DNA of 64,000 nt. It comes from Dehalococcoidia bacterium (GTDB lineage Bacteria; Chloroflexota; Dehalococcoidia; GIF9; UBA5629). The translations under genes were made by a program, and so were the position numbers. The stretch is taken from positions 320,001 through 384,000 of the forward strand of contig JBEKIW010000002.1 in the NCBI GenBank assembly GCA_050011565.1, given 5' to 3'. Below the pieces are notes generated by a model that did not search any database, was not told where the DNA came from, and saw nothing but the letters and a program-made list of their open reading frames with translations. Shown here in pieces: positions 6,712 to 33,389 of the stretch; within the stretch, counting starts at the first letter, position 1; every line of letters begins with the position of its first letter.

Positions 6712-6742
6712 TATGCCTTAGCGTGTAGGAGATAGTGAGGAT

Positions 6743-7285: not shown

Positions 7286-7478
7286 AATAACGACCAAGAT
7301 ATCTCAACTACTGACTCGCTTATAGTGTTCTAAACAATCATCAAACGTGACACTTTTTGTGTATTATCCCAATGGTGCTTTATAGAACTTCAAGCTATCC
7401 TGAAAAAGTAACTGACCTGGTATATGTCTGCCCCGCTTAACACCTAGTCTCAGCCGCTTAACAGTTAGCTTCACTAAC

Positions 7479-7544
7479 GGATTCCTAGTCCATTACCTTG
7501 CTAATAACTAAAGTATTTTCTTTAGGTTTGGGTGGGTGTAAAAT
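7479..7544 (+). repeat. 66-bp leader repeat, copy 2 (ends in TAAAAT)
   Basis: 55/66 identity to 4442-4507. Confidence 0.9.
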
Positions 7545-7609
7545 ATATTAGTTTAGTCTATTTCGTTTTTCATTAGTTGGATATATTATCGAGATGATAG
7601 GAGACTAGT

Positions 7610-8116
7610 ATGAACTACGAACGCATAGTGGTACTCTTTATCGTTCTAGTAATAGCCTATTCAATTCTAGCCCCAATATTTCAGCCCTATTTGCTTTGGA
7701 TAAGCCTTGTATTTGGAATACTGTTGATAGTTTTCATTTGTTGTATATTAATGTTTCCAAGATTTCGGCAAGGTGTATTTTCTGCACTAAAATCCATTTT
7801 TACCAAATTGTTAAGCTGGCTTAGGACGGAGCGAGAGAAACAATCCCTAACTTCAACTAAACCCCAACGTACACCAATTCCTGAAGAGATAAAGAAGCAA
7901 GTATTCAGCAGAGCAGGGGGGCGATGTCAAATCCCAGGCTGTAAAGAATTGGAATCTCCTGTAATACACCACATAGACCAAGACAGAACAAATCATAGAT
8001 TTGATAATCTAATATTGCTTTGTAGCAACCACCATACCACGGCTGACCATAGAGGCTTTCGAAAAGAGCAATTGCATCTATGGAAAGAGCATAAAAACCT
8101 ATCGCAGAATTATTAA
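7610..8116 (+). CDS. HNH endonuclease with two N-terminal TM helices
   Basis: Hydrophobic aa 6-50; RTPIP..IKKQVFSRAGGRCQIPGC...HHID.....N..DNLILLCSNHH; AGGAG RBS. Confidence 0.85.
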   Translation: MNYERIVVLFIVLVIAYSILAPIFQPYLLWISLVFGILLIVFICCILMFPRFRQGVFSALKSIFTKLLSWLRTEREKQSLTSTKPQRTPIPEEIKKQVFSRAGGRCQIPGCKELESPVIHHIDQDRTNHRFDNLILLCSNHHTTADHRGFRKEQLHLWKEHKNLSQNY

Positions 8117-8202
8117 TATGCTACTGTGATTAGACGGCAGTGCTTGGAATCTCTGCGACTTCCCAATCCTTGACGGATTGTTAGTCCTATCCTCTAAGTA
8201 GA

Positions 8203-9231
8203 TTACCTGCTAACTAACTTCTTCAATCCAAGGCTGTACGGCTTCCTAACGATGCCCTTCTCGGTGATGATGGCGGTGATGTATTTGTGGGGGGTGACGT
8301 CGAAGGCGGGATTGGCGGCGGCCACGCCTTTGGGCGCCAGGCGAACTCCCCTAATGCTGGTTACTTCTTCAGGATTGCGTTCCTCGATGGGGATTTCAGC
8401 GCCGGACTTTAAAGAAAGGTCGATGGTGCTGGTGGGCGCTGCCACGTAAAACGGGACGCCGTTTTCTTTAGCCAGCACAGCCAAAGTGTAGGTGCCGATT
8501 TTGTTGGCGGTGTCGCCGTTGGCGGCAATACGGTCGGCGCCGACGATGACGCAGGATACCTTGCCACGGCTCAAGAAATAGCCGGCCATGGAATCGGTAA
8601 TCAATGTGACCGGTATTTTCTCTTGCATCAGCTCCCAGGCGGTGAGGCAGGCGCCCTGAAGCAAGGGGCGCGTCTCGGTGGCGATGACCTCGATTTTCTT
8701 GCCCTGCTCCCAGGCGGCTTTGATGACGCCCAAAGCTGTGCCGTAGCCGGCAGTGGCTAAAGCCCCGGCATTGCAGTGGGTCAAAACGGTGAAGCCGTTT
8801 TTAATAAGCCCGGCGCCGAGCCGGCTGAGCCGCCGGGTGGCTGCTTCTTCTTCGGCATGAATTTTCTTAGCTTCGTCGATGAGCGCCTGCTTTATCTTCG
8901 GCACATCGCCGGAGGTTTCTGCCGCCTTTTTCATCCGGTCGATGGCTCGAAATAGATTTACGGCGGTGGGACGGGCGGCGGCGAAAGACTGCAAGATTTT
9001 ATTGAACTGGCTGAGAAACTTTGCCTTATTATCTGCCTTTATATCTCCGGCACCGAGGGCGATGCCGAAGGCGGCAGCCACACCGATGGCCGGCGCGCCG
9101 CGCACCTTCATCTGTTTGATAGCGGCGACGACTTCGGTGTAGTTTCGGAGGTCAAGAAAGACCAGCTTGCCAGGCAGTTGCGTCTGGTCGATGATTTTGA
9201 GTTTGTTGCCGAGCCATTCAACAGGTTTCAT
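8203..9231 (-). CDS. mtnA: S-methyl-5-thioribose-1-phosphate isomerase
   Basis: [51 protein letters not shown]. Confidence 0.95.
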
Positions 9232-9235
9232 ATTA

Positions 9236-9284
9236 AGTTAAAAGTCAAAAGCCAAAAGCCAAAAATGCAAGTCAAAAGTTAAAA
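9236..9284 (+). repeat. Intergenic heptamer tandem repeat (AAAGYCA/AAAGTTA)
   Basis: aaagtca aaagcca aaagcca aaaatgc aagtca aaagtta. Confidence 0.7.
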
Positions 9285-9746
9285 TTAATTGCCTACTTTT
9301 GAGGCGCTTCGCTTCCAGTCATAAACCGCTTTATTGAGGTTCTCAAGGAACAGGTCGAGGTCGCTCGGGGTTATATTCACATTCATGCCCTTTTTTCTTT
9401 TTATCTCCACGACGTGCTGGCTCACGAAGGTGGTGGCGAAGTTTATTCCCAGGCTTATTCCTTCGGGTTTACCGGCAGTCTCTAAAGTATCGAAGGGAAC
9501 GTTAAAAGAGAACTGGCCGCCGAGTACTATTCTAATTTTGCTATCGAGTATCTGGTATTTTCGGGGGAATACAGCCCAGTAGATGGCGCCCATAAGCACA
9601 CCGGTGGCAAACAGGCCGATAGCCGACTCGACCTGGGCGGTGAATAGGTAATACAAGCCAATGAGGATAAAGAACACCGGCAGCACCATAATGCCTTTGA
9701 GCCAGACATCATAGTGCGGGTTGTCTTCGTAAATTACCGAGTCCAT
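9285..9746 (-). CDS. Membrane protein with bacterial PH-like domain
   Basis: Two TM helices, then a beta-rich segment ending V.ITPSD...F. Confidence 0.65.
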   Translation of the reverse strand: MDSVIYEDNPHYDVWLKGIMVLPVFFILIGLYYLFTAQVESAIGLFATGVLMGAIYWAVFPRKYQILDSKIRIVLGGQFSFNVPFDTLETAGKPEGISLGINFATTFVSQHVVEIKRKKGMNVNITPSDLDLFLENLNKAVYDWKRSASKVGN

Positions 9747-10022
9747 CCGGCAAATTCTCTATGGTTTCTTTGGCATACATATTAACCCAAAATGACCTGT
9801 ATTGCTAGACGGCGGGATGGCCGGTTATTTAAGTACGTGTCACTCGCCTTCGAGTTACCGTACGCAGGGTCATCTGTGGGTAGATGACACCTATGAAGTT
9901 TGGATTTAGAATTTCTATTCAGCTGGCGAGGCTAAAGCCTCACCACTACATGTTCTGTCGACCTTGAGGACCTATTGTTGTAAAATGGTCAACGTGATAC
10001 TTAGAAACAAGGAGGCTATCGA

Positions 10023-10847
10023 ATGCCTACTGTAAAGGTTGGCGATATAAATATCTACTACGAAATACATGGTGATGGAGAACCATTGCTGTTAATCAGT
10101 GGCTATGGCCAGTACTCCGGGCACTGGGCGGCCTTAATTCCCGCACTTTCTCTGGCCCACCGGGTCATTATTTTTGACAACCGCGGTACGGGGAGGAGCG
10201 ACAAGCCGGACATGCCTTATTCGGCTAAGATGATGGCTGCCGATGCTAGGGGACTGCTCGACGCCATCGGCGTGGACCGGGCACACGTTTTCGGCATTTC
10301 CATGGGCGGCATGATTGCCCAGGAGTTTGCCATTAATTACCCGGAGAGGGTTATCAGCCTCATATTGGGCTGCACCGAATGCGGAGGTAAAAATGCGGTA
10401 CCTCAGACTAAAGAGGCTTTGAACTTCCTTTTCGGTCCGGAAATGGCAAAATTATCGGCAGCAGAGAGGGCCAGGCAGACACCGCCCTGGCTTTGGAATC
10501 AGGAATTCATAGATAAGCATCCAAAAGCAGTTGAGTTTTATATCGAAACCACTGCGAAGTTCCCCACACCGCCTCACGGCTACGCCAGCCAGTCACGTAC
10601 CATCAGGAGCCAGGATACCTATGACCGGCTGCCGCAAATCAAGGCTCCGACGCTGGTCATAGCCGGCGACGCCGACAGGATTATTCCGGCCGGTAACTCG
10701 AAGATTCTAGCCTCCAGGATACCGGGTGCCGAGCTGGTTATGCTGAAAAATTCAGGCCACGGCTTTTTCGGCGATGCCGCCCGCGAGTCTATCGGGGCAA
10801 TAGTCGATTTTCTGAAGCGACACCAGAAGGATAAGAAAAAAGTCTAG
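10023..10847 (+). CDS. Alpha/beta hydrolase (paralog 1)
   Basis: FDNRGTGRS, nucleophile elbow GISMGG, GD.D, GH; AAGGAGG RBS. Confidence 0.9.
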   Translation: MPTVKVGDINIYYEIHGDGEPLLLISGYGQYSGHWAALIPALSLAHRVIIFDNRGTGRSDKPDMPYSAKMMAADARGLLDAIGVDRAHVFGISMGGMIAQEFAINYPERVISLILGCTECGGKNAVPQTKEALNFLFGPEMAKLSAAERARQTPPWLWNQEFIDKHPKAVEFYIETTAKFPTPPHGYASQSRTIRSQDTYDRLPQIKAPTLVIAGDADRIIPAGNSKILASRIPGAELVMLKNSGHGFFGDAARESIGAIVDFLKRHQKDKKKV

Positions 10848-10922
10848 AAGTTGAATGCTTTGTTTATCTGTACAGGCTATGTGCCTACTAATGTGGTAAT
10901 TTAAAAACAAGGAGGCGCTGAA

Positions 10923-11735
10923 ATGCCCACGGTAAAAGCTAACGATATAAATATCTACTACGAAATCCACGGCGACGGGGAACCACTGTTAATGATACAG
11001 GGCTACGGCCAGTACTCCGGACACTGGACAACTCTGATTCCTCCGTTTGCTAAGGAGTACCGCGTCATTATCTTTGACAATCGCGGTACCGGGCGGACTG
11101 ATAAGCCGGAGACGCCTTACACCATGAAGATGATGGCTGCCGATGCCAAAGGTCTTCTCGACGCCATCGGCATTGACAAGGCGAATACTTTCGGCGTTTC
11201 CATGGGCGGCATGATTGCTCAGGAGTTTGCGCTCAACTATCCCGATAAGGTAATCAACCTGGTACTGGGCTGCACCAATTGTGGCGGAAAACAATCCGTA
11301 ATACCCACCCCGGAAGCGCTGGCATTTCTTTTTAATCCGGAGATAGGGAAGTTGCCGGTGGCAGAGCGAGCCAGGCAAACGGCGCCCTGGTTGTGGACCA
11401 AGGAATTTATCGATAAGCATCCTGAGGCTGTTGATAGCTATGTGGACATAACTATGAAATATCCCACGCCGCCTCACGGCTTTTCAGGCCAGGCACAAGC
11501 CATAGCGGGCCACGACACCTATGAGCGGCTGCCCCAAATTAAGGCGCCAACTCTGGTTATAGCCGGCGATGCCGACAGGCTGATTAATCCCGATAACTCG
11601 AAGATTCTGGCTTCCCGAATACCCGGTGCGGAGCTGGTCATGGTGAAAAATGCCGGCCATGGCTTCACTGAATCGCCGGAAGCTACCACAGCAATACTCG
11701 ATTTTCTGAAGCGGCACTCCAACGGCAGAAAATAA
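10923..11735 (+). CDS. Alpha/beta hydrolase (paralog 2)
   Basis: FDNRGTGRT, GVSMGG, AGH; highly similar to the upstream paralog. Confidence 0.9.
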   Translation: MPTVKANDINIYYEIHGDGEPLLMIQGYGQYSGHWTTLIPPFAKEYRVIIFDNRGTGRTDKPETPYTMKMMAADAKGLLDAIGIDKANTFGVSMGGMIAQEFALNYPDKVINLVLGCTNCGGKQSVIPTPEALAFLFNPEIGKLPVAERARQTAPWLWTKEFIDKHPEAVDSYVDITMKYPTPPHGFSGQAQAIAGHDTYERLPQIKAPTLVIAGDADRLINPDNSKILASRIPGAELVMVKNAGHGFTESPEATTAILDFLKRHSNGRK

Positions 11736-11742
11736 TCTTCCC

Positions 11743-12330
11743 TTATCTCCGGGGACGTGGGATGATTCGGCCTGTTCGGTTGATGTATAAACGGTATTCT
11801 TCTCCAAATTGCTCAAGCATCATCCGTTCCTCACGTGGAACCCGTAACAAGTATAGGGGTATAAAAAATGCCAGATAAGTTAAACCTGCAATCCAGTTTT
11901 GTATCAATAGCGCTTGAGCAATTCCCCACAGCCAGTATGCCGCATACATCGGGTGGCGAATGTATTTAAAAACACCGTTGGTTATGAGCGTTTGCTCCTT
12001 CTTAATTTCTGTAGTTATAGACCAGTTATGTCCTAAATCAGCATGTGACCTCCAGAGCAACCACAATCCCAAGGCAAAAATAGCTGTGCCAACCCACCCA
12101 GTCCAGGTTGGCAGGTCGTAATTGGCGAAATCCAGCCAGGACGTAAACATATAAAGCAGAGGCATAAGCATGGCTAATGGCGCTAAGTATATCAGTAAAC
12201 CCGTAATAAACCCTTCTGTACGAAAGATAGACTTTCTATCCTGCCAGTATTTCATCTCATACCATACACGGATAGCTGAGTACACGATTAAACCAATTAA
12301 ATAAAAAATCGGAAAAATATTGTCGAGCAA
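11743..12330 (-). CDS. Isoprenylcysteine carboxyl methyltransferase (ICMT/Ste14) family membrane protein
   Basis: LG.NWS......LITNGVFKYIRHPMY...R...EE.M....FG..Y..Y. Confidence 0.85.
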   Translation of the reverse strand: MLDNIFPIFYLIGLIVYSAIRVWYEMKYWQDRKSIFRTEGFITGLLIYLAPLAMLMPLLYMFTSWLDFANYDLPTWTGWVGTAIFALGLWLLWRSHADLGHNWSITTEIKKEQTLITNGVFKYIRHPMYAAYWLWGIAQALLIQNWIAGLTYLAFFIPLYLLRVPREERMMLEQFGEEYRLYINRTGRIIPRPRR

Positions 12331-12364
12331 AAGTAAACCTCCTGTTCTCTTATGACAGTCGGGG

Positions 12365-12937
12365 TTACGTGGAAAGTCGTGAGTTTTTTCTGTTTCTTCC
12401 TAACCTGGGAATGAACATCGGCACCTTTTCCTTGTATTCCAGGTAATCCCGGCCAAACTTTTTCTCCATTTCCTTCTCTTCTATAGCTTTTATATAGAGG
12501 ACATTAATCACGATGAAGAGAGGAGTGAAGATGAAAATGAGGGACAGCGAGCCGAACAGTAGTCCCAGCCCGAGCATAAAGATAAACATGCCCAGTAGCA
12601 TGGGGTTCCTGATATAGGCATATAGGCCGGTGGTGATGAGCTTCGGCGGCGGGTTGAAGGGGACTGGCGTGCCCCGGGTGCTGAAGAAGGCTATGACCGG
12701 CCAGAACATGATAAGCCAGCCGACAAACATAATGAACCAGGCTAGCCCCGCGCTCCACAAAGTCGAGCCGAAATGGAGGAAGGTAAGCCATTTGTCCAGC
12801 CATAAAGAGGCGAAGACGAATAGTACGATGATGCCGAAGAAGATAACCAACGCTATGGGCAATAAACGCATTCTACGCTTCATGCCTCCGGTGGCTACTC
12901 TGTAGACATAATCGGCATATCTATCCCAGACGCTCAT
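12365..12937 (-). CDS. ICMT/PEMT-family membrane methyltransferase
   Basis: GTPVPFNPPPKLITTGLYAYIRNPM...EEKEM..KFG..Y..YK..VP.FIP. Confidence 0.85.
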   Translation of the reverse strand: MSVWDRYADYVYRVATGGMKRRMRLLPIALVIFFGIIVLFVFASLWLDKWLTFLHFGSTLWSAGLAWFIMFVGWLIMFWPVIAFFSTRGTPVPFNPPPKLITTGLYAYIRNPMLLGMFIFMLGLGLLFGSLSLIFIFTPLFIVINVLYIKAIEEKEMEKKFGRDYLEYKEKVPMFIPRLGRNRKNSRLST

Positions 12938-12939
12938 TT

Positions 12940-13485
12940 TTACCTCCTGAACTTTGGAATGAACATCGGCACCTTCTTCTTATATTCCAGGTATTCTTTG
13001 CCGAACCTGAGCTCCAACTCCCGTTCTTCAACAGCTTTGAGATAGAGGAAGCCAAGCAGAGTGAGGAGAGGTATAAAGATGAGAATTAGCGAAAGCGAGC
13101 CAAACAAGAACCCCAGCCCTTCTCCGATTAGGATACCAGCTGTAGCCATTGGGTTCCTGACATGGGCGTATATCCCGGTGGTGATAAGCTTAGTCGGCGG
13201 TTTGAAGGGCATGGGTGTGCCACTGGCTCTGCGAAACGTTACTATTATCCAGGCATCGATGACAAAGCCAAGTAAAAGAAGGAGAGCGAATAGGCCGATT
13301 CCCCACCACGTGAAACGAAAAACGGGGAGAGCGAGCCACCTGTCTACCCAGAAGGAGGCAAGGATGAAGAGTGCAATAATGACGTAGAGGATGAGAGGCA
13401 TTAGCGCTTTGACGAAGGTTCTGCGTCTCTTGTCCCCAGTAGCGGCCGCATTGATAGACACTGCCCATCTATCCCAGATGCTCAT
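12940..13485 (-). CDS. ICMT/PEMT-family membrane methyltransferase
   Basis: GTPMPF.PP.KLITTGIYAHVRNPM...EEREL..RFG; start reset to MSIWDR, matching the paralog's MSVWDR. Confidence 0.85.
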   Translation of the reverse strand: MSIWDRWAVSINAAATGDKRRRTFVKALMPLILYVIIALFILASFWVDRWLALPVFRFTWWGIGLFALLLLLGFVIDAWIIVTFRRASGTPMPFKPPTKLITTGIYAHVRNPMATAGILIGEGLGFLFGSLSLILIFIPLLTLLGFLYLKAVEERELELRFGKEYLEYKKKVPMFIPKFRR

Positions 13486-13629
13486 TACTGCTATCCTTTC
13501 AGCGTTGTCTCGATGTGCAGTATAGATTTGTTTGAGACTTGTGTCCAGTTCGCCTGTCCCTATATAAATTTGTTTGACAGCCATGTAACGCGGGCGTATT
13601 ATCGGGAGGCTAATCATCAAGGAGGTAAT

Positions 13630-14181
13630 ATGGCACGCGTTAAATTAGTCGAGAAAGAACAAGCCGACCCAATAATTAAAGAGATGTTCCAGAAATTGGA
13701 TGACCGTAAAGTTCCCGTACTCAATTTATTCAAGGCTGTAGGCAATAGCCCCAAAGTAGGCCGCAATTTCGTCAGATTGGGCAATTCGATACTCAATCCG
13801 GATTTACTAGACCCGAAGCTAAGAGAACTGGCTATACTGAGGGTCGGCAATCTGCTGCGGTCGGAATACGAGTTCACCAAACATGTAGCCATCGGCACGG
13901 AAGCCGGTGTCACCAACGACCAGATTAACGAGCTTCCCAACTGGACATCTTCGAAGAGATTTACCGATATTGAACGGGCCGTGCTGCAGTATACCGAGGA
14001 GGTCACGCTTAATGTTAAGGTCAGCGACAGCACATTCGCTAATCTGAAGCGCTTTTTCGACGACCCGGCAATCGTCAAGCTTACGGCAACTATCGGCTAT
14101 TACGGAATGGTATCCAGGATACTGGTGGCTTTGCAGATAGAGCTGGAGCCCGGCGAAAAGGCTTTCATACCGAAATACTAA
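13630..14181 (+). CDS. Carboxymuconolactone decarboxylase / AhpD-like family protein
   Basis: LDPKLRELAILRV......YE...H; GGAGG RBS before ATG 13630. Confidence 0.85.
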   Translation: MARVKLVEKEQADPIIKEMFQKLDDRKVPVLNLFKAVGNSPKVGRNFVRLGNSILNPDLLDPKLRELAILRVGNLLRSEYEFTKHVAIGTEAGVTNDQINELPNWTSSKRFTDIERAVLQYTEEVTLNVKVSDSTFANLKRFFDDPAIVKLTATIGYYGMVSRILVALQIELEPGEKAFIPKY

Positions 14182-14220
14182 GTCGCTTGGAGGCCGAAAA
14201 CATCCACGGAGGTTGATTCT

Positions 14221-14982
14221 ATGCTCAGATTAAAGGATAAGGTAGCAGTTGTATCAGGCGCCGGCTCCTCGAGGCCCGGCATGGGGAATGGCAAGGCAAC
14301 GGCTATTTTGTTTGCCCGGGAAGGAGCCAGGGTAATTGCCGTGGATAAAAATCTGGAAGTGGCTGAAGAAACCGTCAGTTTGATTACCGGTGATGGCGGC
14401 AAGGCAATGGCGATACAGGCCGACGTCACCAAAGAAGCGGAGGCTAAAAAAGTTGTCGACGCGGCAGTCGCTAATTACGGCAAGCTGGATATATTGTTCA
14501 ACAACGTCGGCATCGGCCTGGGTGGCGGCGGCCTTAAGGTGACCGAGGAAGAATGGGATACTATTATGGACACCAACCTCAAGAGCATATTATTCATGTG
14601 CAAATACGCCGTACCGGAGATGAAGAAAATCGGCGGTGGTGCCATCGTCAATAATGCATCCATGGCGGCATTTTACGGTCACCGCCTCTATGCTTATGCC
14701 ACTTCAAAAGCCGGCGTTACGGCATTGACCAGGTCTCTGGCCGTGGGACTGGCCAAGGACAATATCAGGGTGAACTGCGTGGCGCCCGGCTTCATAGCCA
14801 CTCCGATGGTCCAACCCATTATGAACGAGAAACGTGAGCAGGGTGTCCGAGAGCGGGTGCCAATGCGCAGGCACGGTAAAGCCGAGGAGATAGCTTACAC
14901 AGTGCTTTTTCTGGCGTCAGACGAAGCTTCGTATATAACCGGGCAAACTATATGCGTTGACGGCGGCCTGTCCGTGATGTAA
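14221..14982 (+). CDS. Short-chain dehydrogenase/reductase
   Basis: SGAG.....G.G, NNVG, YATSK, IRVNCVAPG, TGQTICVDGG. Confidence 0.92.
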   Translation: MLRLKDKVAVVSGAGSSRPGMGNGKATAILFAREGARVIAVDKNLEVAEETVSLITGDGGKAMAIQADVTKEAEAKKVVDAAVANYGKLDILFNNVGIGLGGGGLKVTEEEWDTIMDTNLKSILFMCKYAVPEMKKIGGGAIVNNASMAAFYGHRLYAYATSKAGVTALTRSLAVGLAKDNIRVNCVAPGFIATPMVQPIMNEKREQGVRERVPMRRHGKAEEIAYTVLFLASDEASYITGQTICVDGGLSVM

Positions 14983-14984
14983 AC

Positions 14985-15017
14985 GAAAGTAAAAAGTAAA
15001 AAGCCAAAAGCTAAAAA
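14985..15017 (+). repeat. Intergenic heptamer tandem repeat
   Basis: aaagtaa aaagtaa aaagcca aaagcta; same family as 9236-9284. Confidence 0.65.
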
Positions 15018-15023
15018 TTCGGG

Positions 15024-15368
15024 TTATTTCTTTTTCCTGATTTTTTCCAGCGTTGCTTTGGCGTGCGGCACCATGGCGATGAACTTGGTCAGCTTTTTGC
15101 AGCCGTAGTCATCGCAGTAGGCGCAGTTAATAACCGCTTTGCCCTGTCCGCATTTTCTTATTTCGCAGACGTTACAGTAGCCGATAAGCCTTTTGCCCTC
15201 GGACTTGCAGCCGTCGCAGTTGATATCCTCCGGTTTAACGGACATCTTGTACTGCTTGGACCACATCTCAGCCACCTGCTTCCTTTTGGCATCATCGTTT
15301 TGCTGGGTGGCTATAAATGCCGGGCATTCGGTGCAGACTATGCCGCAGTAGGCAATCATCTTGTCCAT
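15024..15368 (-). CDS. Cys-rich DUF3795-family protein
   Basis: IAYCG..C..CP, CDGC, C..C.IR.C, NCAYCDDY.C. Confidence 0.8.
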   Translation of the reverse strand: MDKMIAYCGIVCTECPAFIATQQNDDAKRKQVAEMWSKQYKMSVKPEDINCDGCKSEGKRLIGYCNVCEIRKCGQGKAVINCAYCDDYGCKKLTKFIAMVPHAKATLEKIRKKK

Positions 15369-15401
15369 GGTTTCCTCCTTTTTCGAAGATCGCTCTGAAC
15401 T

Positions 15402-15435
15402 ATAAAGGGGCGGATTTGAAGTTCCGCCCCTTTAT
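15402..15435. terminator. Intrinsic terminator after the DUF4349 gene
   Basis: ataaaggggcgga...tccgcccctttat: 13-bp stem. Confidence 0.8.
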
Positions 15436-15447
15436 TTTTAGTTGGCG

Positions 15448-16332
15448 TTATTTTCTGGAAGTCCTGGCTTTGGCGTGGCGCCACCGTGTGAAATAGAGTA
15501 CTACCAGCAGTATAATAATCCAAACCGGGCTGAATACCGCCACCCAGATAAGTATGATTGCCAGTACCTTGCCGAAGCTGACCAGGCCGCGGGCTGCCGA
15601 CTTCAATGTTTCGAGTACGCTCCAGGCAGTCCCGCCTATGGGCTTTACTTTCTGCAGGTTTACGTCGATGAGCGCCATATCCGAGGTGCGCTCAATATAC
15701 AGGATACGCCCCTTAACCTGCTCGATTTGGCCGCGTACGTTAGATAGCTCCCGCTGCACGGCCAATATATCTTCTACCTTCTCTGCCTTCTTGAGCAGCT
15801 CCAGGTATTGAGCTTCGGTCGCCTCGAGGTTGCGAAGCTGTGCCTGCAGGTCGGTGTACTGCTCGGTTACATCCTGGCTGTTGGTGCTCTCATTAGGAAC
15901 GTTGACTGCTAACTTGCGGAGTTCGTCGAAGGCTTGGTCGAAGCGGTCGGACGGCACTCGAATGGAACTTTGGCCGTAGGTTGCGTCTTTATCTCCCGAC
16001 TTATTTGAGGACACCACATAGCCGTTCAAGTCTGTGGCAATTGCAGCCACGCCGGTCAGAGCCGCTGTTATATCATTTACCTCCAGAGTCATGTTGCCGT
16101 TCTTCACGATTTTGCGGTCCATGTCCGTGGTGCTAACCTCGCCGGCGACGGAGTGGGATGCGGTATCGTAGGTGTTGCTCTTAAGCATTTCTTGCGGTGC
16201 TGGCGGTGCTGGTACGGCTCCGCCCTCGAATGGCGGCGCTGTTACTGAGGTTTGTTTGGTGGCGCAGCCTGCAGCCAGTATCAGCCCCAGGATAACGAAT
16301 ACGGGAATCAGAATTTTGAGCAGTTTATTCAA
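15448..16332 (-). CDS. DUF4349-domain lipoprotein
   Basis: Lipobox LAAGC; RKIVKNG, IRVP, DVTEQY.DL..., coiled coil, C-terminal TM. Confidence 0.85.
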   Translation of the reverse strand: MNKLLKILIPVFVILGLILAAGCATKQTSVTAPPFEGGAVPAPPAPQEMLKSNTYDTASHSVAGEVSTTDMDRKIVKNGNMTLEVNDITAALTGVAAIATDLNGYVVSSNKSGDKDATYGQSSIRVPSDRFDQAFDELRKLAVNVPNESTNSQDVTEQYTDLQAQLRNLEATEAQYLELLKKAEKVEDILAVQRELSNVRGQIEQVKGRILYIERTSDMALIDVNLQKVKPIGGTAWSVLETLKSAARGLVSFGKVLAIILIWVAVFSPVWIIILLVVLYFTRWRHAKARTSRK

Positions 16333-16366
16333 TCGTTTACCTCCTTTTATCCGTTTCTATATGTAA

Positions 16367-16394
16367 TATACGGCTAATACCTAAAAGTATTACA
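16367..16394 (-). promoter_or_regulatory. Putative ECF-sigma (SigW/SigM-like) promoter of the DUF4349 gene
   Basis: Minus strand TGTAAT-N16-CGTATA upstream of the AAGGAGG RBS. Confidence 0.45.
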
Positions 16395-16503
16395 TAATAA
16401 GCATGTCCCAGAGACGAATCTGATATAATATTTGAATATTGAGCGAGCTTTGCAGTAATCATTCACTTTTATCCAAGAATAGTATATCAAAGAAGGAGCA
16501 TGA

Positions 16504-18204
16504 ATGGTTCAATCTATAGTCGAAAGTCTGGAGCCGTTATTCAATCCCAAATCGGTGGCTGTAGTAGGGGCCACGACTAACTGGAACAAGTGGGGATATT
16601 CAACATTCACCAGCGCTCTTAACGGATTCCGAGGGCCGGTGTACCCGGTGAATAATAAAGAAAGTGAAATCCTGGGCCATAAAGCCTTTGCCCGGGTGAC
16701 TGATATTCCGGACCCGGTTGACCTGGCTATTGTCGTCATCCCGTCGACCGGTGTGGCTGCAGTCATGGAGGACTGTGTGGCTAAGGGCGTGAAATCGGCC
16801 GTAATTATTTCGGCCGGCTTTGCTGAGATAGGGAAAGAGGGTAAAAAGCTGCAAGACGAAGTCTTGAATATTGCCAGGGAAGGCAACATTCGTTTCATAG
16901 GACCTAACTGCATGGGGTTCTGGAGCGCTTCGTCCGACTTGAGGGGATTCATGTTTCCCTTGCCGGTTAAGGATGGGCCGCTGGCTTTTGTATCGCAGGG
17001 CGGAAATGTCGGCGGTGCCGTGGTAACTTCCGGTTTTATGCGCGGAGTCGGCTTCCATCGCTATGTGAGCTGTGGCTGTGCTGCAGATATACAGATTGAG
17101 GACTATATCGAGTATTTCGGTCAGGACCCGGAGGTGAAGGTCATACTGGCATACATCGAAGGCCTGGTTGACGGTCGTCGCTTCATGGAGAAGGTAAAAA
17201 AGGTGACGCCGACAAAACCTGTAATTGTCCTGAAACCGGGTAAAACAGACGCTGCTGCCAAAGCCATAACGTCGCACTCCGGGGCGCTGGCAGGCTCTGA
17301 CGAGGCCTATGAGGCCGCGTTCAAAAGTATCGGTATCACCAGGGTGGAAAGCCCTGAGGAGCTGCTGGACGTGGCCATTGGATTTCTGACCCAACCGCTG
17401 CCCAAGGGCAGAAACGTGGCTATACTGACCCCAGGCGGCAGCTACGGCATTCTATGTGCCGAAGCTTGTGCCACAGAGGGCCTGGAAGTGGTCAAATTGC
17501 CTGATAGGGTTATTGCGGCGCTGGATAAGGTTTTTCCGCCGCGGTGGAGCCATGGCAATCCGGTTGACCCGGCCGGGGACAGGAACTTACTTACATATCT
17601 GACCGCTCCGGGCAAGCTGTTAAAGGTGGACGAGATTGACTCTTTGATTTTCATGGGATTCAGCGGTTTCTCAATTTTTGCCTCGCTGTTCATTTCCAGG
17701 GACTCCGGTGAGCCGGCTCCCTGGGTTTCCTCACGCGAGGCATTCCGTGAGATAGCCGCGGAATTTACCAGTGCGATCATTTCCAAAGATACGGTGAAAA
17801 TCGGCAAAACCGTATTTCCTATCGTTTCCGGTATGGCTTCGAGGATGGGAATTTATCACGAGGAAGACGTGGCTGAACTAACGGAGATAATTGCCGCTGC
17901 CATTGTCTCCGGCCGTCTCAGAGTTCCATTCCTGGTTAGCGCCTTCCTGCCGTCCGGTTCTGAGGCTCTGACCGAGATGGGAGTTAAAACCCCACCGACA
18001 GCTAATGAAGCTTCAGCTCATTTTTTGGTGGCGCTCGCCGAGCAGTGGGTGGCAAGTTACAAGAAGCCTGTGCTAACCACCACCTTTTTTACTGTAGACC
18101 AGCCGAGACTAGAGGGTACTCACTACGCTTACCCATCTGGCAGACATGCCGCCAGGGTCCTGATTAAGATGGTGGAATACAGAGAGTACCTGGACGCAAG
18201 TTAA
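16504..18204 (+). CDS. ADP-forming acyl-CoA synthetase alpha-subunit-like (CoA-binding) protein
   Basis: FNPKSVAVVGA, ISAGFAE, IGPNCMG, catalytic SHSGALAG, NPVD; no ATP-grasp domain. Confidence 0.85.
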   Translation: MVQSIVESLEPLFNPKSVAVVGATTNWNKWGYSTFTSALNGFRGPVYPVNNKESEILGHKAFARVTDIPDPVDLAIVVIPSTGVAAVMEDCVAKGVKSAVIISAGFAEIGKEGKKLQDEVLNIAREGNIRFIGPNCMGFWSASSDLRGFMFPLPVKDGPLAFVSQGGNVGGAVVTSGFMRGVGFHRYVSCGCAADIQIEDYIEYFGQDPEVKVILAYIEGLVDGRRFMEKVKKVTPTKPVIVLKPGKTDAAAKAITSHSGALAGSDEAYEAAFKSIGITRVESPEELLDVAIGFLTQPLPKGRNVAILTPGGSYGILCAEACATEGLEVVKLPDRVIAALDKVFPPRWSHGNPVDPAGDRNLLTYLTAPGKLLKVDEIDSLIFMGFSGFSIFASLFISRDSGEPAPWVSSREAFREIAAEFTSAIISKDTVKIGKTVFPIVSGMASRMGIYHEEDVAELTEIIAAAIVSGRLRVPFLVSAFLPSGSEALTEMGVKTPPTANEASAHFLVALAEQWVASYKKPVLTTTFFTVDQPRLEGTHYAYPSGRHAARVLIKMVEYREYLDAS

Positions 18205-18298
18205 AAGTCGAAAACACCTTTGAGTCTTTTGATATTGCTCAGGGGCTCGAGCCCCTGGCCATGACAACTTGTCAGCCTAAGGTTGAAGGAGGTGGGCT

Positions 18299-19224: not shown

Positions 19225-20454
19225 TCATCTATGGTTACTGCGCCTATTTGAGGTAGAAGGCTTATTTTGGCTGGGGCTGGCAGGGCTTGGGGCCGTATTG
19301 TTATCGCTTTGGATGGTAGTCTGGCTGGTACCTCCGGTACCTGTATTTCCCTGGTTCTGAGTTACATTATCGCTCTTGGAGGTGGTGTCCTTATCGCCCG
19401 ACCAGCTTTTTATGTTATCGAGAGCTTTCTGCCAATCATCTTTAGCTGGCTCCGCTGCCTTTTCCTTGGCACCTTGCAAAGCTGTTACGCCCTTTGAGGT
19501 GCTTTTATTTAAAGATATTATCAGTTTTTCAGTCTTGGCAGATTTACCTTTATCACGCGTGGCAGTTGGCGGCGGCTGCGTTTCCGTGGATGGGGGCGTA
19601 GTAATCGCAGGCGGCGTGGTATTCTCGGTCGGCGTTATAACCGCAGGCGGCGTAGTAGTTGTAGTCGGCGTGGTATTCTCGGTCGGCGTTATAACCGCAG
19701 GCGGCGTAGTAGTTGTAGTCGGCGTGGTATTCTCGGTCGGCGTTATAACCGCAGGAGGTGGGGTAATCGCAGGCGGCGTAGTAACCACAGGCGGCGTAGT
19801 AACCACAGGCGGCGTGGTAACCACAGGCGGCAATGTCGCGGTAGGAGGTACAATAACTGGCGGGGGCTCGGTACCTTCTGTCTTGATTATGGCGGCCATA
19901 GCCTTTTCAAACTGGTCATTATACCTGTCGGCTGCCTTGGCAGCCTCCTCGGTCTTACCCGCATTGGCCATGGCTTCCAATTCGGCAGCCCTAATATTGG
20001 CCAGTTCGGTTTCAACTTGAGCTTTTTGGGTATCGGAAACCGCAAGTGCCACCCGCACCTGTTCCGTTGCCAGCTTTACCGGGTAGAGTGGTTGGTCAGG
20101 TAACGCCTGTGACGAGGCCGCCATAGTGCTGCCGGTGGTCAGCAGGAGTACAATGCCAGCACTTACAGCTACCGCCCAGCCATGCCGCAGCCATGTGGAA
20201 GCGGCGGGAGTTTCGGCCCTGGCTTGTTGCCGTGGATAACGCTGCGCTGATTCAATACGTACTTGCGCCCAGTGTTTAAATTCAGGGCGAGGGTGGATAT
20301 AGGAAATCCTCCGGCCTATGTCGAAGGTGGTTCTAAGCAGCGGCTCGAGCTGCGCACGATATTGCGGATAGCTCCTGAGGCAGCTCTCAAGGCTTTCGCC
20401 CGAGCGTATCCGCTCATAGCATTCATTGAATATATCGTCTAATTTACTAGCCAT
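19225..20454 (-). CDS. Putative anti-sigma factor (DUF5667-like) with Pro/Thr-rich repeats
   Basis: Overlaps the ECF sigma stop; N-terminal LESCL..YP.....LEPLL; one TM; ALPDQPLYPVKLATE. Confidence 0.8.
   Translation of the reverse strand: MASKLDDIFNECYERIRSGESLESCLRSYPQYRAQLEPLLRTTFDIGRRISYIHPRPEFKHWAQVRIESAQRYPRQQARAETPAASTWLRHGWAVAVSAGIVLLLTTGSTMAASSQALPDQPLYPVKLATEQVRVALAVSDTQKAQVETELANIRAAELEAMANAGKTEEAAKAADRYNDQFEKAMAAIIKTEGTEPPPVIVPPTATLPPVVTTPPVVTTPPVVTTPPAITPPPAVITPTENTTPTTTTTPPAVITPTENTTPTTTTTPPAVITPTENTTPPAITTPPSTETQPPPTATRDKGKSAKTEKLIISLNKSTSKGVTALQGAKEKAAEPAKDDWQKALDNIKSWSGDKDTTSKSDNVTQNQGNTGTGGTSQTTIQSDNNTAPSPASPSQNKPSTSNRRSNHR
19612..19830 (-). repeat. Coding tandem repeats (54-bp unit ~2.7x; 18-bp unit 3x)
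   Basis: PPAVITPTENTTPTTTTT with 54-bp period (attctc at 19621 and 19675); PPVVTT x3. Confidence 0.85.
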
Positions 20455-20989
20455 CTAATTTTCCGTAAAGTGCCTTTCTTAATGAAGCCGTGGCATTGAA
20501 CTGCAATGCCTTGACTGTCCCCTCGCTTTTGCCCAGTGTTCTGGCTACCTCGGCAATCGATAATTGCCCTATAAAACGCAGGGTGGCAACATCTCGCTGG
20601 GCCTCCGGCAACTGTTCCAGTGCTACTTTCAGCTGATAAACTTCATAATCCCTTTCTGTCATCTGTATCGGGTCTTCCACACTCCTGGTATAAGCTTCCT
20701 CGAGTGGGGCTCTTTTCTCCTTTGACTGTTTCCGTACATGGTCAATTACCCTGTTATGAGCGATCTTGAATAGCCAGGCGGCAAATGGCAGATCGCGCCA
20801 TTTGTAAGTATTAATCGATTCCAGGGCTCTGATGAATACATCTTGAGTTAAATCCTCAGCCTCGGCTCGATCTCTGACTTTAATATAGATGTATCGATGT
20901 ATTCTGTCAAAGTTCTGGTTGTATAGCTGGGTAAAGGCCGCTTGATTACCATTTACTGCCTGCTGTACTAAATATTCTTCACTTAACAC
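20447..20989 (-). CDS. ECF RNA polymerase sigma factor
   Basis: AF..LY, AEDLTQDVF, FAAWLFKIAHN, L.E.QR...L.IAEVA..LGKSEGTVK; start set to GTG 20989. Confidence 0.92.
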   Translation of the reverse strand: MLSEEYLVQQAVNGNQAAFTQLYNQNFDRIHRYIYIKVRDRAEAEDLTQDVFIRALESINTYKWRDLPFAAWLFKIAHNRVIDHVRKQSKEKRAPLEEAYTRSVEDPIQMTERDYEVYQLKVALEQLPEAQRDVATLRFIGQLSIAEVARTLGKSEGTVKALQFNATASLRKALYGKLDG

Positions 20990-27232: not shown

Positions 27233-27814
27233 TCAGTTAAACTTGTTCATGGCGGCGGTTATGCCGTCGGTCAGGATGGACTGGATGGCTTTGGCTACCT
27301 GGGCGATGGCGGCCTTGATTATATCGTCTTCTCGAGGGGTGAAGTCGCTGAGCACGTAGTTGACAATAGCGTCCTCATCGGTGATTGCCGTGCCGTCTTC
27401 TTCGGTCGGGCGGCCGATGCCTACCTTGATGCGGCAGAAATCTTTGCTTCCCAGAGCCGAGATTATCGAGTTTATCCCTTTGTGTCCCCCAGCGCTACCA
27501 CCGGGGCGGAGGCGCAGCCTGCCCAAGGGCAAATCGAGGTCATCACATATAACAATCAGGTCGTTTACCTGGATTTTGTATTTGCGCATCAGTCGCCCAA
27601 CCGCCTCACCGCTTAGATTGACGAAGGTCTTGGGTTTAGCCAGCAGTACTTCCACGCCGGCTATTTTACCGCTGCCGACTTGAGACTGGCACTGGTGCCC
27701 TTTCATGGATATGGAATGGAGCCTGGCCAGATGGTTTATGCAGCGGAAGCCGATATTGTGGCGGTTACCGGCATAAATGCTGCCCGGATTGCCCAGACCT
27801 ACAATTAGTTTCAA
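27233..27814 (-). CDS. pth: Peptidyl-tRNA hydrolase
   Basis: LIVGLGNPG, RHNIGF, KPKTFVNLSG, GGH.G. Confidence 0.95.
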   Translation of the reverse strand: MKLIVGLGNPGSIYAGNRHNIGFRCINHLARLHSISMKGHQCQSQVGSGKIAGVEVLLAKPKTFVNLSGEAVGRLMRKYKIQVNDLIVICDDLDLPLGRLRLRPGGSAGGHKGINSIISALGSKDFCRIKVGIGRPTEEDGTAITDEDAIVNYVLSDFTPREDDIIKAAIAQVAKAIQSILTDGITAAMNKFN

Positions 27815-27823
27815 TTTTGTGCA

Positions 27824-27853
27824 CCCCTCACCCTGCCCTCTCCCCTTGTCAAG
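27824..27853 (+). repeat. Left half of REP-like palindrome including target duplication CTTGTCAAG (27845-27853)
   Basis: acccctcaccctgccctctccc-cttgtcaag; the right half cttgtcaag-gggagaggg is at 31242-31259. Confidence 0.85.
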
Positions 27854-28207
27854 TAGCCCCGTGCATAATGTTATGTCAATAATACCTGAAACGAGGAGAG
27901 AAGATGATTAATAATACCAGATGTTGCCGACTTTGGGCTAGGTTCTCAATACAATAGCTTAGGGATGTGCGAAACTACATTCGAAACTCACTTATGATCC
28001 ATATTAGTATTACGTACCTCAATACTTTCGATAGTATATTTGAGCGTTCTATAAAGCATATCTAAATCCTCTATAAATTCATTCACCTATTGTAAGATAC
28101 CTTTATTTGACATTATGTAAAGAGTACTCTTGACTTATGCCAAATCTTAATTTACTATAGACTCTAAATCAAAGCCACAAAAAGCAATTAAGCTGAAGAG
28201 ATCATAC

Positions 28208-29872
28208 ATGGTAGAACAGTTCTCGGTTTTCCAAATGCGCAGCACTACAGACTGGGAAAGTCTAGTAAGGTTCTTATTGAAGAACGGGACACCCGCCGTC
28301 TCAACTAACCTAAGACCTGCTATTGAGATCTTTAATCTTTTACGTCTTCGTGGGTGTCTCTCAGTTATAATTGAAGATCCTTATTTGGATGAAGATCACC
28401 GACGGTGTCATGCTCGGCTGCATAATCTTGCCCAGTCAGCCATGTCGCGATATTGTAGGCGACTGCATTTTTTCTCCAAAGAAGTGCAACTATCTGACCT
28501 AAGAAATCTACCTGAGACTTGTCACAAACAATACATGGGGATGTGTGTATGGAGACCCATCAATGCTTTCCCCGTTGGACGTACAATCTTATCTGCCAAA
28601 AACGTAATTGCACCAGTAGGCAAAAATTGGGAACCATACCTAACGTGTAGTACGAAATATGAAATAAATATGGCAGGCAACATATTGGCAGTAAATGGAT
28701 CGCCGTTTATCCAACAGGATCACATGGTTGCAGCTTGTGCTACTGCAGCTATATGGATGGCAAACTGGTATATGAGTACTCAGTATGATGAGTTCACTAC
28801 ATACTATAGCCCACAAATAACCGAAGCAGCGACACGCTATGATCTCTCTTTTGGGCGGGCTATTCCTTCGGAAGGGTTACATAATGGACAGATACTAGAA
28901 GCTTTCAGGGCACTTGGTTATGATCCTATTGCATATGATTTACTCAAAACTTCCGCTACTGTTTCTAGACGTCTACTCTATAGATTAGTGGAAAGCGGAA
29001 TCCCCACGGTAGCTGGGCTTGTTGAACCGGAGGGTGGGCATGCTATCACCGTTTTCGGACATGCATTAGACATGGATATTGACCCGCCACTCCATACGTT
29101 TCCCGAAAGATCACGTTCAATTAGGGCTGTAAAATATATTGACTCATCTGACTATAGCCAAGCCTTCCTAGTTAACGATGATGCAATGGGGCCTTATCGT
29201 TGGATGGAATTAAAAGATACAAACGAGATAACGGAAGAGAACTTAAGAGGGATTTACCCAACTAGTCGTAGCCTCAATGCAGCAAAACGTTTCCTCGATG
29301 AGCTTGCTAGTAGAGACATCACTACTACTGCGATATTCAGTAACAGCTCCGGTCAACCGGAATTCATTGCGGGGATTGATTTTCTTGCTGCACCATTGCC
29401 GACTGCTATTACATTATCACCAAAGGACGCCCAAGATAAAGCGTTAGCAGTATTTCACACTCTAATACCTAGTGATTCGGGAACCCTTCCGACGCTTGCT
29501 GTACGCACCTATCTTACAGAATCCAATACATTCAAAGAACACATCGGCAAGGTAGCCAACCCGAACTCAGATTTTGCATGGTGGTTACGTAGCTTGTATT
29601 ACCCAAAATGGATCTGGGTCACGGAATTCAGCACTTATCAAAATAATAGAACCCCAATAGGCCGACAGGTGGTTGCATCTATCGTGATAGATTCCTCTGC
29701 ACCACGTGACACCTTGCATTTTGTTTTAGTGCATATTGGTGGCTGGGTTATTCATATAAGCAAAGATCAACAGAATGTGATACAAGTTGTTAAAGATATG
29801 GCAATGAATAGGCTTCCACTTTTAATTGACAATAACTTCGTCCCTTACGTTCAACTAGAGAGAAAAAATTAG
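28208..29872 (+). CDS. Large papain-like (C39-like) cysteine peptidase, uncharacterised family
   Basis: PFIQQDHMVAACATAAIW (Gln/Cys), GGHAITVFGH (His), FLVNDD (Asn/Asp) in papain order. Confidence 0.7.
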   Translation: MVEQFSVFQMRSTTDWESLVRFLLKNGTPAVSTNLRPAIEIFNLLRLRGCLSVIIEDPYLDEDHRRCHARLHNLAQSAMSRYCRRLHFFSKEVQLSDLRNLPETCHKQYMGMCVWRPINAFPVGRTILSAKNVIAPVGKNWEPYLTCSTKYEINMAGNILAVNGSPFIQQDHMVAACATAAIWMANWYMSTQYDEFTTYYSPQITEAATRYDLSFGRAIPSEGLHNGQILEAFRALGYDPIAYDLLKTSATVSRRLLYRLVESGIPTVAGLVEPEGGHAITVFGHALDMDIDPPLHTFPERSRSIRAVKYIDSSDYSQAFLVNDDAMGPYRWMELKDTNEITEENLRGIYPTSRSLNAAKRFLDELASRDITTTAIFSNSSGQPEFIAGIDFLAAPLPTAITLSPKDAQDKALAVFHTLIPSDSGTLPTLAVRTYLTESNTFKEHIGKVANPNSDFAWWLRSLYYPKWIWVTEFSTYQNNRTPIGRQVVASIVIDSSAPRDTLHFVLVHIGGWVIHISKDQQNVIQVVKDMAMNRLPLLIDNNFVPYVQLERKN

Positions 29873-29896
29873 CAGGAGACAATTGTCTCCTGCTAA
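29869..29896. terminator. Perfect 28-bp palindrome, bidirectional terminator
   Basis: ttagcaggagacaattgtctcctgctaa between convergent ORFs. Confidence 0.85.
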
Positions 29897-29924
29897 AAGG
29901 TTTCTGCTAATCGCCGTTTGTTTA

Positions 29925-30095
29925 TTACTTTGTGTTAGGACGTCCTAGTGTCTTTGCAGAAACGCCTGTACGTTCTGCTTCTTTGCCCTTATTTGCCACA
30001 CTTAGAGCTTTTAATGCCTTCGTTGCTCTCCTGTCAATTCCCCGCACAATAGCTTTTGGGTCTGGACGATTTAAGACCATTGTAGTTAAAGCCAC
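29925..30095 (-). CDS. Small basic peptide (56 aa; not in ORF track)
   Basis: GAGGTGA RBS + GTG; MALTTMVLNRPDPKAIVRGIDRRATKALKALSVANKGKEAERTGVSAKTLGRPNTK; tandem TAA TAA stops; promoter upstream. Confidence 0.7.
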   Translation of the reverse strand: MALTTMVLNRPDPKAIVRGIDRRATKALKALSVANKGKEAERTGVSAKTLGRPNTK

Positions 30096-30152
30096 AACTC
30101 ACCTCTTTCTGATTTGTTCCTTATTGCCGCTGCCGACACAATTTGCTTTCGT

Positions 30153-30180
30153 ATTATACACCCATTTGTCAAGAGGTCAA
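30153..30180 (-). promoter_or_regulatory. Sigma70-type promoter for the 56-aa peptide
   Basis: Minus strand TTGACC-N16-TATAAT. Confidence 0.6.
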
Positions 30181-30435
30181 GCCCTTCAAATTTGCCAAAA
30201 TCCAAATCTTGTACTTTAGTACTATATTCATGAAATAGGCCAAGGTATTTTACTATTATACACAATAAAATTACAAAAATAATATTTTTTCAAGACTATC
30301 TAATCATACATTGAAGTTGACAAACAACTGATAAGGTGGTAATCTATTATTCTAACCATCTAATATTATATATTAACAAAAAATCATACTTTTGTCAATA
30401 TACACTGGTATAAACGTAAACTGATAAACGTCAAG

Positions 30436-30642
30436 ATGGACAGACTATCTGCCGAACAATCCCAATCAGACAAATTTTCCAAAGGGTCAAGGCGTCCACA
30501 GACTTTTAAATTGTCAATGGGTTTAATAAAACGACTAGGACATTACGTAGTAGACCGTAGCAGCAAAGATAGTCGCCGCATAGAGAAGTCTGAAATAGCA
30601 GAACAGGCGATAGGCGAGTTCCTAAATAAAGAAGGTTATTAG
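30436..30642 (+). CDS. Putative ribbon-helix-helix DNA-binding protein
   Basis: Alternating strand PQTFKL, a helix, then KSEIAEQAIGEFL, typical of RHH helix 2. Confidence 0.65.
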   Translation: MDRLSAEQSQSDKFSKGSRRPQTFKLSMGLIKRLGHYVVDRSSKDSRRIEKSEIAEQAIGEFLNKEGY

Positions 30643-30674
30643 GGTTTATCTCGTTCAAATATCGTACTTAGCCA

Positions 30675-31189
30675 TTAACCAACCTGCCTAACACATTCTC
30701 TTATATCCTCTACTCGGCCATCTTTTGCTTTGGCTAGGGCTAGCGCTTGCATAACCAGTACCGACAAAGTTGTATGAGCATTCAGCCGGTCAAAACCCCG
30801 GAAACAGTGCTCCTCTAATCTACGTGTCTGTTTCAGCCTGGAAAAGACACGTTCCGAAGAAGAGCGCTTGCGGTAAAGTGTAGTCCATTCATCTGTTCCA
30901 CGTTTAACTGTATGGCCAAATCGGCGATAATCTTGCCCCTGATTAAGCCAGATCATCTTAAGCCCACATTTCTCAGGCAAAGGGCAAGTGGCTCTCCCGG
31001 CCTTTTCAGGACATTGGTATTGATACAACCCTTTTTTATTATCCCTGCTTCTAAATATGAGCGGTAATCCCGCTGGGCAGCATGGTTTTGATGAGGACCC
31101 TGTCAGCTCTGGCATTGTCCCTTTTGATCTTGCTGATAATGGAATGACCGGGGATGCCCCAAACTCGTCAACATCTGGTATTATTAATC
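30675..31189 (-). pseudogene. Truncated DDE transposase (IS4/IS5/IS1182-like), C-terminal part only
   Basis: Cys-rich insertion CCPAG..YQCP..C....C and Y.KRSS.ERVFSRLK (catalytic Glu); the frame is closed just inside the inverted repeat and the N-terminal Asp region is missing. Confidence 0.85.
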
Positions 31190-31270
31190 ATCTTCTCTCC
31201 TCGTTTCAGGTATTATTGACATAACATTATGCACGGGGCTACTTGTCAAGGGGAGAGGGAAAGAAGTATG

Positions 31271-31295
31271 TTGAAAGGGGCTACGCCCCTTTCAA
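31271..31295. terminator. Hairpin (REP-like/terminator) downstream of ligA
   Basis: ttgaaaggggc-tac-gcccctttcaa. Confidence 0.7.

Positions 31296-31331: not shown

Positions 31332-33389
<2,058 letters not shown>

Follow-up and report, generated by a model that had tools for sequence, protein, structure and literature searches.

Organisation of the locus

The locus described here lies in a 64,000-nt stretch of DNA, called the window below, from a Dehalococcoidia bacterium of the Chloroflexota (assembly GCA_050011565.1, contig JBEKIW010000002.1, positions 320,001 to 384,000 of the forward strand). Between the genes pth and ligA, an element of 3,388 nt (27854-31241) was found, with a GC content of 41%, compared to 50-51% in the 10-kb flanks. 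It is bounded by two inverted arms, and holds a gene for a protein with a papain-like domain and the 3′ remnant of an IS1182-like transposase gene (Table 1). A preliminary description had read it as a composite transposon, in which two inverted copies of an insertion sequence (IS) captured the cargo, were deleted internally and then moved as one unit in trans into the loop of a repeated extragenic palindrome (REP). Our analysis supports a recent, internally deleted, non-autonomous transposon, inserted where a repeated extragenic hairpin forms its loop. The names of the protein relatives also point to a probable Chloroflexota (Dehalococcoidia-like) host.

Table 1. Coordinates of the element, of its target and of neighbouring features in the window
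Feature	Position	Strand	Remark
Peptidyl-tRNA hydrolase (pth), host flank	27233..27814	-	
BoxC/PIT-type target, left part	27824..27844		third block, 2-nt spacer and one stem arm
9-nt target duplication, left copy	27845..27853	+	
Left arm, perfect 73-nt inverted repeat	27854..27926	+	holds GAGGAG and ATG
Family end motif, 26 nt, transposase-downstream end	27854..27879	+	4-5 mismatches to three ends of L001 and L002
15-nt microhomology stretch	27923..27937	+	13/15 match to the transposase junction
Cargo, 554-aa papain-like domain protein, predicted cysteine protease of no named family	28208..29872	+	
28-nt perfect palindrome	29869..29896		terminator-like, between convergent frames
Possible 56-aa gene	29925..30095	-	GAGGTG ribosome site; promoter match 11/12 at 30180-30153
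68-aa protein, probably ribbon-helix-helix	30436..30642	+	lead only
IS1182-like DDE transposase, 3′ remnant	30675..31172	-	165 open codons
Right arm, perfect 73-nt inverted repeat, at the transposase-upstream end	31169..31241	-	inner 4 nt overlap the first codons of the remnant
9-nt target duplication, right copy	31242..31250	+	central base in direct, not inverted, polarity
BoxC-type target, other stem arm	31251..31259		
Second GC hairpin beside the target	31271..31295		terminator-like for ligA; a similar one adjoins the L001 target
NAD-dependent DNA ligase (ligA), host flank	31332..33377	-	

Ends of the element and target duplication

The perfect inverted repeats announced by the preliminary description were recovered, the arms being complementary at 73 of 73 positions, with the first inward mismatch at 27927. 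Nine of the next 10 bases are matched again (mismatch at 27931), which gives 84 nt with 2 mismatches (82/84); the probability of at least 9 matches out of 10 in this inward extension by chance is 3e-5. A fuzzy search with the first 26 nt, allowing up to 7 mismatches, detected no further copy of the end motif in the window beyond the two ends. The earlier statement that no copy of the repeat follows the transposase stop at 30675 is therefore correct.

A direct repeat, CTTGTCAAG, borders the element on both sides; one additional copy in the window, at 18743, is unrelated. As this sequence is a near-palindrome, the duplication may be read as 1, 3, 5, 7 or 9 nt long from the window alone. The 9-nt length first proposed is nevertheless favoured, because the end of one of the two relatives described below (L002) begins at TAG without AAG before it.

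Both arms contain the inward-facing ribosome-binding site and start codon noted earlier (GAGGAG at 27893-27898 and ATG at 27904 in the left arm, both also present in the right arm). The frame opened by this ATG is 17 codons long on the left, and 7 codons long on the right, where it is out of frame with the transposase remnant. On the left side (27893-27957), a good ribosome site and an ATG stand 40-50 nt inside the end, and the 17-codon frame may represent the beginning of a cargo gene that was lost. Each arm has a C at base 24 (27877 and 31218), which creates an outward TTGACA on the opposite strand. C is also found at the upstream end of the first relative, L001, and T at both known downstream ends.

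Structured RNA was looked for in the element with Rfam, and the 3 matches obtained (E 0.27-0.98) were all under the gathering score; the arm alone does not fold (z +1.0). The end sequence was matched in plasmids by 2 weak Bacillus records (E 0.3), and by none in phages. An end of the IS200/IS605 type, considered from a likeness of the first bases, was dropped, as the transposase is of the DDE type and duplications are present.

The transposase remnant

The remnant is 82% identical to residues 253-416 of P0001, a relative of 416 aa with contigs of 19.8 kb, and 38 longer transposase relatives were retained among 1,793 candidates. In the alignment of these proteins, D151 and D240 are nearly invariant and E358 is invariant; we take these residues to be the DDE catalytic triad. 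The remnant lacks the two conserved aspartates and retains the glutamate alone, which means that the element cannot move itself. No second or helper transposase was found within the window. Since the frame of the remnant is still open, the collapse is recent.

The IS1182 domain layout combines DUF772 with DDE_Tnp_1 or DDE_Tnp_1_6. Full-length relatives display this layout (PF05598 and PF01609, often PF13751), and the remnant falls under the Pfam cut-offs. NF033551 (IS1182) was the best NCBIfam model for 6 of 6 full-length relatives, with 132-151 bits for a cut-off of 270, and gave 49 bits with the remnant. As the relatives score under the cut-off, we call them IS1182-like rather than filed IS1182 members. 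They also depart from the compact IS of that family, in which the repeats directly flank the transposase gene, the ends known in L001 and L002 being kilobases away from it. In plasmids, 58 records of transposase relatives were found, all below 60% identity, the 30 listed being at 21-30%. A profile search returned 288 clusters at E<=1e-30, and no solved structure was found for this profile.

The arms had been interpreted as the transposase-start end of an IS. This proved untenable: none of the 38 longer relatives begins with the peptide encoded from the arm ATG, and in L001 the transposase start is 4,230 nt away from the nearest end.

Two relatives with cargo genes

A genome scan yielded 22 candidate stretches, from which 2 loci were confirmed. 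The first one, L001 (OY970123.1), belongs to another Chloroflexota genome and contains a complete element of 10,764 nt (5774-16537), flanked by a 6-nt direct repeat. Its ends are perfectly inverted over 23 nt, fade by about 34 nt, and differ from the first 26 nt of the window element by 4 and 5 mismatches. From the start of the transposase gene to one end there are 4,230 nt, and from its stop to the opposite end 5,271 nt; the gene product is 55% identical to the remnant and 53% to P0001. The cargo includes a type IIG restriction-modification enzyme.

The second locus, L002, is more distant (46% identity of its transposase to P0001). One end motif, with 5 mismatches, lies 5,919 nt downstream of the transposase gene; upstream, the contig breaks off after 2.3 kb, and no second motif was detected in that part. 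None of 200 shuffles reached the match of the end motif in L001 (4 mismatches), and the same 0/200 was obtained for L002 (5 mismatches). As a consensus, the family end motif reads TAG N4 GTGCA W AAT R TTATGT Y AA. An RmrT/RmrA-like toxin-antitoxin pair is encoded upstream of the transposase (131-1989), and a methyltransferase, a PIN protein and an 843-aa methyltransferase-containing protein downstream (3686-8922).

In both loci a 49-aa zinc-ribbon-like open reading frame (ORF) precedes the transposase gene (L001 9794-9940, L002 2133-2279). The two products are 55% identical, with a weak match to DUF7129; downstream of each ORF come an AAGGAG site and a non-ATG start, with a strong hairpin as well in L001. 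This small protein possibly regulates the element.

From this comparison we concluded that the parent type is a unit transposon, with its transposase gene inside and the end motif belonging natively to both ends. We consider the family and the layout of this parent group very probable. Two IS copies joined in a composite need not be assumed, since the intact L001 carries the motif at both ends. The window element itself shows one remnant, two end motifs and no inner ends, instead of the two flanking IS copies of a composite transposon, although a second copy may have been lost entirely, and neither of the 2 loci found is a stand-alone IS carrying the window end. The preliminary description named 73-bp repeats at both ends of the parent IS as a finding that would count against it; L001 goes part of the way, with the motif at both of its ends, in a repeat perfect over 23 nt and not 73.

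Insertion into a BoxC-type hairpin

Excision of the element together with one copy of the duplication restores a hairpin, as noted earlier, with a 12-bp stem. Both emptied sites, in the window and in L001, contain the three blocks of the BoxC/PIT/TM repeat (CCCTCNCCC, GGGNGAGGG and GGGNGAGGG). The spacers are of 9 and 2 nt in the window, and 4 and 4 nt in L001, and the strict E. coli pattern (3-6 and 3 nt) has 0 matches in both. The motif was relaxed to spacers of 3-9 and 2-4 nt, limits set after seeing both sites. In this form it matches once in the emptied window (60,603 nt) and once in the emptied L001 (10,493 nt), each time at the insertion, and it fits both copies in a 322-nt intergenic stretch of E. 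coli, one of which has a 2-nt second spacer.

The two insertions are alike in other respects. In each case a hairpin of one kind is split within its loop, another GC hairpin stands some 10 nt off, and the third pyrimidine block is found on the transposase-downstream side. They are independent events, as the flanking genes differ (pth and ligA versus peptidase M54 and Rossmann-DUF2520). Both duplications start with CTT and finish with AAG, yet one is 9 nt long and the other 6 nt, which suggests that the stem sets the cutting positions. The BoxC target is intergenic, and degenerate related units are found in L001 at 5487, 5622 and 20237. We observed that L001 contains arrays of 134-135-nt units (5330-5773 and 19945-20461), each with a degenerate BoxC-like hairpin and a second GC hairpin, together with a separate 100-nt repeat family, and that the element occupies the most perfect copy. 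A lone GC hairpin resembling the second hairpin of the target, without BoxC, is present in the window at 18241-18256.

Targeting of a hairpin loop is highly likely in our view. Targeting of palindromes is a trait of some IS1182 members that is found again in the window and in L001. The visible end of L002 (9523-9553) is outside a BoxC hairpin, so that one of the two relatives fits the targeting, and this weighs against it; a short palindrome is seen about 20 nt from that end motif. The L002 end favours a transposase that reads any GC-rich stem-loop, as IS1272 does, BoxC being hit as a common strong hairpin of these hosts, and IS1272 and TnSha1 insert in targets alike in structure and not in sequence (PMC5678879, PMC4923244). 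Against such an indifferent choice, both full insertions occupied the BoxC loop despite a strong hairpin about 10 nt away, in equal orientation and with the same CTT and AAG borders. We regard recognition of any stem-loop as possible, though rather doubtful. BoxC targeting by large cargo transposons is based on two insertions.

The earlier proposal of a REP loop, on the model of IS1397, holds for the loop of a repeated extragenic hairpin, also seen in L001, and has to be corrected for the type, which resembles BoxC/PIT and not classical REP. The preliminary description also asked whether sibling elements all sit in the same loop with 9-bp duplications: L001 is in the same kind of loop, with a duplication of 6 nt, and the L002 end is outside BoxC.

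Origin of the 73-nt arms

Homology to P0001 begins at 31172 (residue 253), exactly at the end of the right arm. The 15-mer of the left end that matches this junction (13/15) has no other match in the window at up to 2 mismatches, and we concluded that the junction was mediated by microhomology.

With confidence evenly balanced, we read the element as the remnant of a single unit transposon, having an internal IS1182-like transposase gene, cargo on both sides and an end motif of about 26 nt; its collapse by template switching, one end being copied over the other, is held at the same even level. The layout of L001, the end motif shared with it, and the insertion of both elements in a BoxC-type loop come directly from the comparison. 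From there, the transposase would engage both stem arms, as a hairpin or a cruciform, and join each end 5′ of CTT, leaving a duplication that equals the loop region in length (9 nt in the window, 6 nt in L001). While the region is replicated or a gap is repaired, a growing strand that runs into the upstream end would switch to the homologous downstream end, copy about 47 more bases, and return at the 13/15 microhomology within the transposase gene. These two template switches, as one event, would suffice to produce perfect arms of 73 nt, with loss of the upstream cargo and of 252 codons (the catalytic half), leaving a non-autonomous element. As this collapse could occur in place, the subsequent move in trans of the preliminary description is not needed.

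Several points weigh against this scenario. Only a single relative was recovered with both ends, and it is distant (55% identity to the remnant); the direct parent was not found among the loci of the genome scan; and no empty site was seen in a close relative. Moreover, base 24 of the arms is that of the upstream end of L001, the opposite of what copying of the downstream end predicts. Finally, a simple deletion explains the microhomology equally well if the upstream end of the parent already had the sequence. In that case a single parent with repeats of at least 84 nt would have lost its upstream cargo and the 5′ part of its transposase gene by plain slippage between direct microhomologies, which is one ordinary event. 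However, the L001 repeats are perfect over 23 nt and fade by about 34 nt, and the deletion endpoint would have to land within 84 nt of the tip of a multi-kb arm; we find this rather unlikely.

The idea of two copies can also be amended, with parent transposons inserted in inverted orientation, e.g. in neighbouring BoxC loops, providing two upstream-type ends, and the pair collapsing by deletions before moving as a unit. The C at base 24 of both arms, as in the upstream end of L001, favours this weakly; BoxC-like units are indeed arrayed in L001, the microhomology would again be direct, and movement in trans is known for IMU-type elements, whose two ends are identical (PMC3184786, PMC4133298). 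It nevertheless demands two insertions, at least 2 deletions and another transposition, the arm ATG is not the transposase start, and neither a second transposase remnant nor an internal end motif is present. We therefore judge it unlikely. An artefact of assembly or amplification, attaching an inverted left-end copy to the transposase gene in vitro or in silico, is very improbable. Inverted chimeras joined at microhomologies are a known product of amplification, but here the duplication keeps direct polarity at its central base, and on the right side the sequence runs on through the second hairpin to ligA. In addition, a record 100% identical to the last 93 aa of the remnant sits on a contig of 3,302 nt, which is precisely the length of the unique unitig simulated between the arms (27897-31198) at k=31; none of the other 12 k values tried gave this length. 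This coincidence of length suggests that the inner junctions were built alike by another method, possibly from the same reads.

The cargo protein and other features

For the 554-aa cargo protein, 7,997 candidates were scored and 47 relatives retained; 41 of these were aligned with it. Q170, C177, H278 and D325 are invariant in the 42 sequences, giving the Gln/Cys...His...Asp set. The structure model has a pLDDT of 90.5, and all 5 Foldseek matches with E<=0.001 bear names of papain-clan proteases and cover part of the chain only. An atlas comparison gave a TM score of 0.88 over residues 110-330 to a cluster in which 17% of the members have Peptidase_C39_2, a domain matched at E<=0.01 by 5 of the 42 aligned sequences. 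No Pfam, NCBIfam or PADLOC model matched the window protein, and none of the 42 sequences matched a PADLOC defence model. On the strength of the structure model and these residues, it is predicted to be a papain-like, C39-related cysteine protease.

In 4 of 4 plasmid relatives an ORF of 52-60 aa lies directly upstream of the papain-fold gene (L003 4740-4922, L004 4744-4902, L005 4590-4763, L006 4607-4774). There is no such ORF upstream of the window gene; the possible 56-aa gene converges on it instead, and its product has no Pfam match. Two of the four plasmid relatives adjoin multiubiquitin and ThiF genes, presumably Bil-type defence operons. These neighbours, together with the cargo of L001 and L002, suggest a putative defence role for the protein. 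A literature search on papain proteins in defence found nothing. An equal-length copy, 85% identical (P0039), occurs on contigs of up to 9.3 kb and is the best lead to an intact parent.

The 68-aa protein had an atlas score of 0.91 to a cluster with RHH_1 in 22% of its members. Another low-GC stretch (38-44%) was noticed in the window at 4001-8000, with ORFs at 4491-5489, 5509-6711 and 6743-7285.

Comparison with known systems

The staphylococcal IS1272 and TnSha1 come close, as they rely on an IS1182-related DDE transposase that inserts in hairpins, and as one transposase moves a passenger gene by use of a further end (PMC5678879, PMC4923244). As described there, the stem-loop is deleted, no duplication is formed and no sequence preference is seen, whereas the insertions in the window and L001 duplicate the loop (by 9 and 6 nt) and use one repeat type. 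The L001 transposase gene, unlike theirs, is kilobases away from both ends. A duplication of the loop only figures as a possible pathway in PMC5678879 (Fig 13c), and IS1182-type transposases are described as varied in hairpin targeting, target deletion, duplication and passenger traits.

REP-targeting IS are reported from five families. IS1397 and ISKpn1 (IS3), IS621, ISPa11 and ISPpu9 (IS110), and ISRm22 (IS4) also enter repeated extragenic palindromes, and ISRm22 makes duplications of 6 nt, as L001 does (PMC1525189). They differ by their transposase families, by being simple IS without cargo, and by using classical REP and not BoxC (PMC1525189). As to the target, all three 9-nt blocks of the BoxC/PIT/TM(ECO) triplex repeat are matched in the window and L001; the motif was reported from proteobacterial genomes, with 23 TM copies in E. 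coli MG1655, and the authors state that no link to transposons, phages or plasmids was found (PMC4666352). IMU, TIME-composites and mobile insertion cassettes are also non-autonomous, with cargo between identical ends. Those of IMU are whole 288-bp Tn3-type miniature inverted-repeat elements (MITEs), shown to be mobile in trans (PMC3184786, PMC4133298); the window element has 73-nt arms around a transposase remnant, and any mobility of it in trans is hypothetical.

No published BoxC-targeting element and no description of this Chloroflexota group were found in a search that left out ISfinder, the Siguier 2015 review and most subscription papers. For a suspected connection of IS186 with BoxC, one paper was found, which does no more than list the two, and no relevant literature was found for a link of DUF559 to this repeat.

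Significance

We tentatively propose, with somewhat less than even confidence, an undescribed group of multi-kb unit transposons of the Chloroflexota, which carry defence cargo and an internal IS1182-like transposase gene, and insert into BoxC/PIT repeats in a fixed orientation, the stem fixing the cuts and the duplication following the loop. The surprise is limited, because the targeting of hairpins, on the one hand, and passenger genes, on the other, have precedents among IS1182-like elements. If true, this would link BoxC directly to a mobile element, and possibly reveal that a DDE transposase can recognise a structure of non-B DNA, while the window would illustrate how non-autonomous derivatives arise by copying one end over the other.

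BoxC is not known to have an assigned function, and its survey tied it to local genome instability (PMC4666352). A transposase aiming at BoxC would offer one cause of that instability, and would let a choice of target guided by structure, with duplications of variable length, be put to the test. Given the restriction-modification and toxin-antitoxin genes of the relatives, the group may bring defence genes to intergenic sites of the Chloroflexota where insertion does no harm, and the unnamed papain-fold cargo would then be a candidate defence protein.

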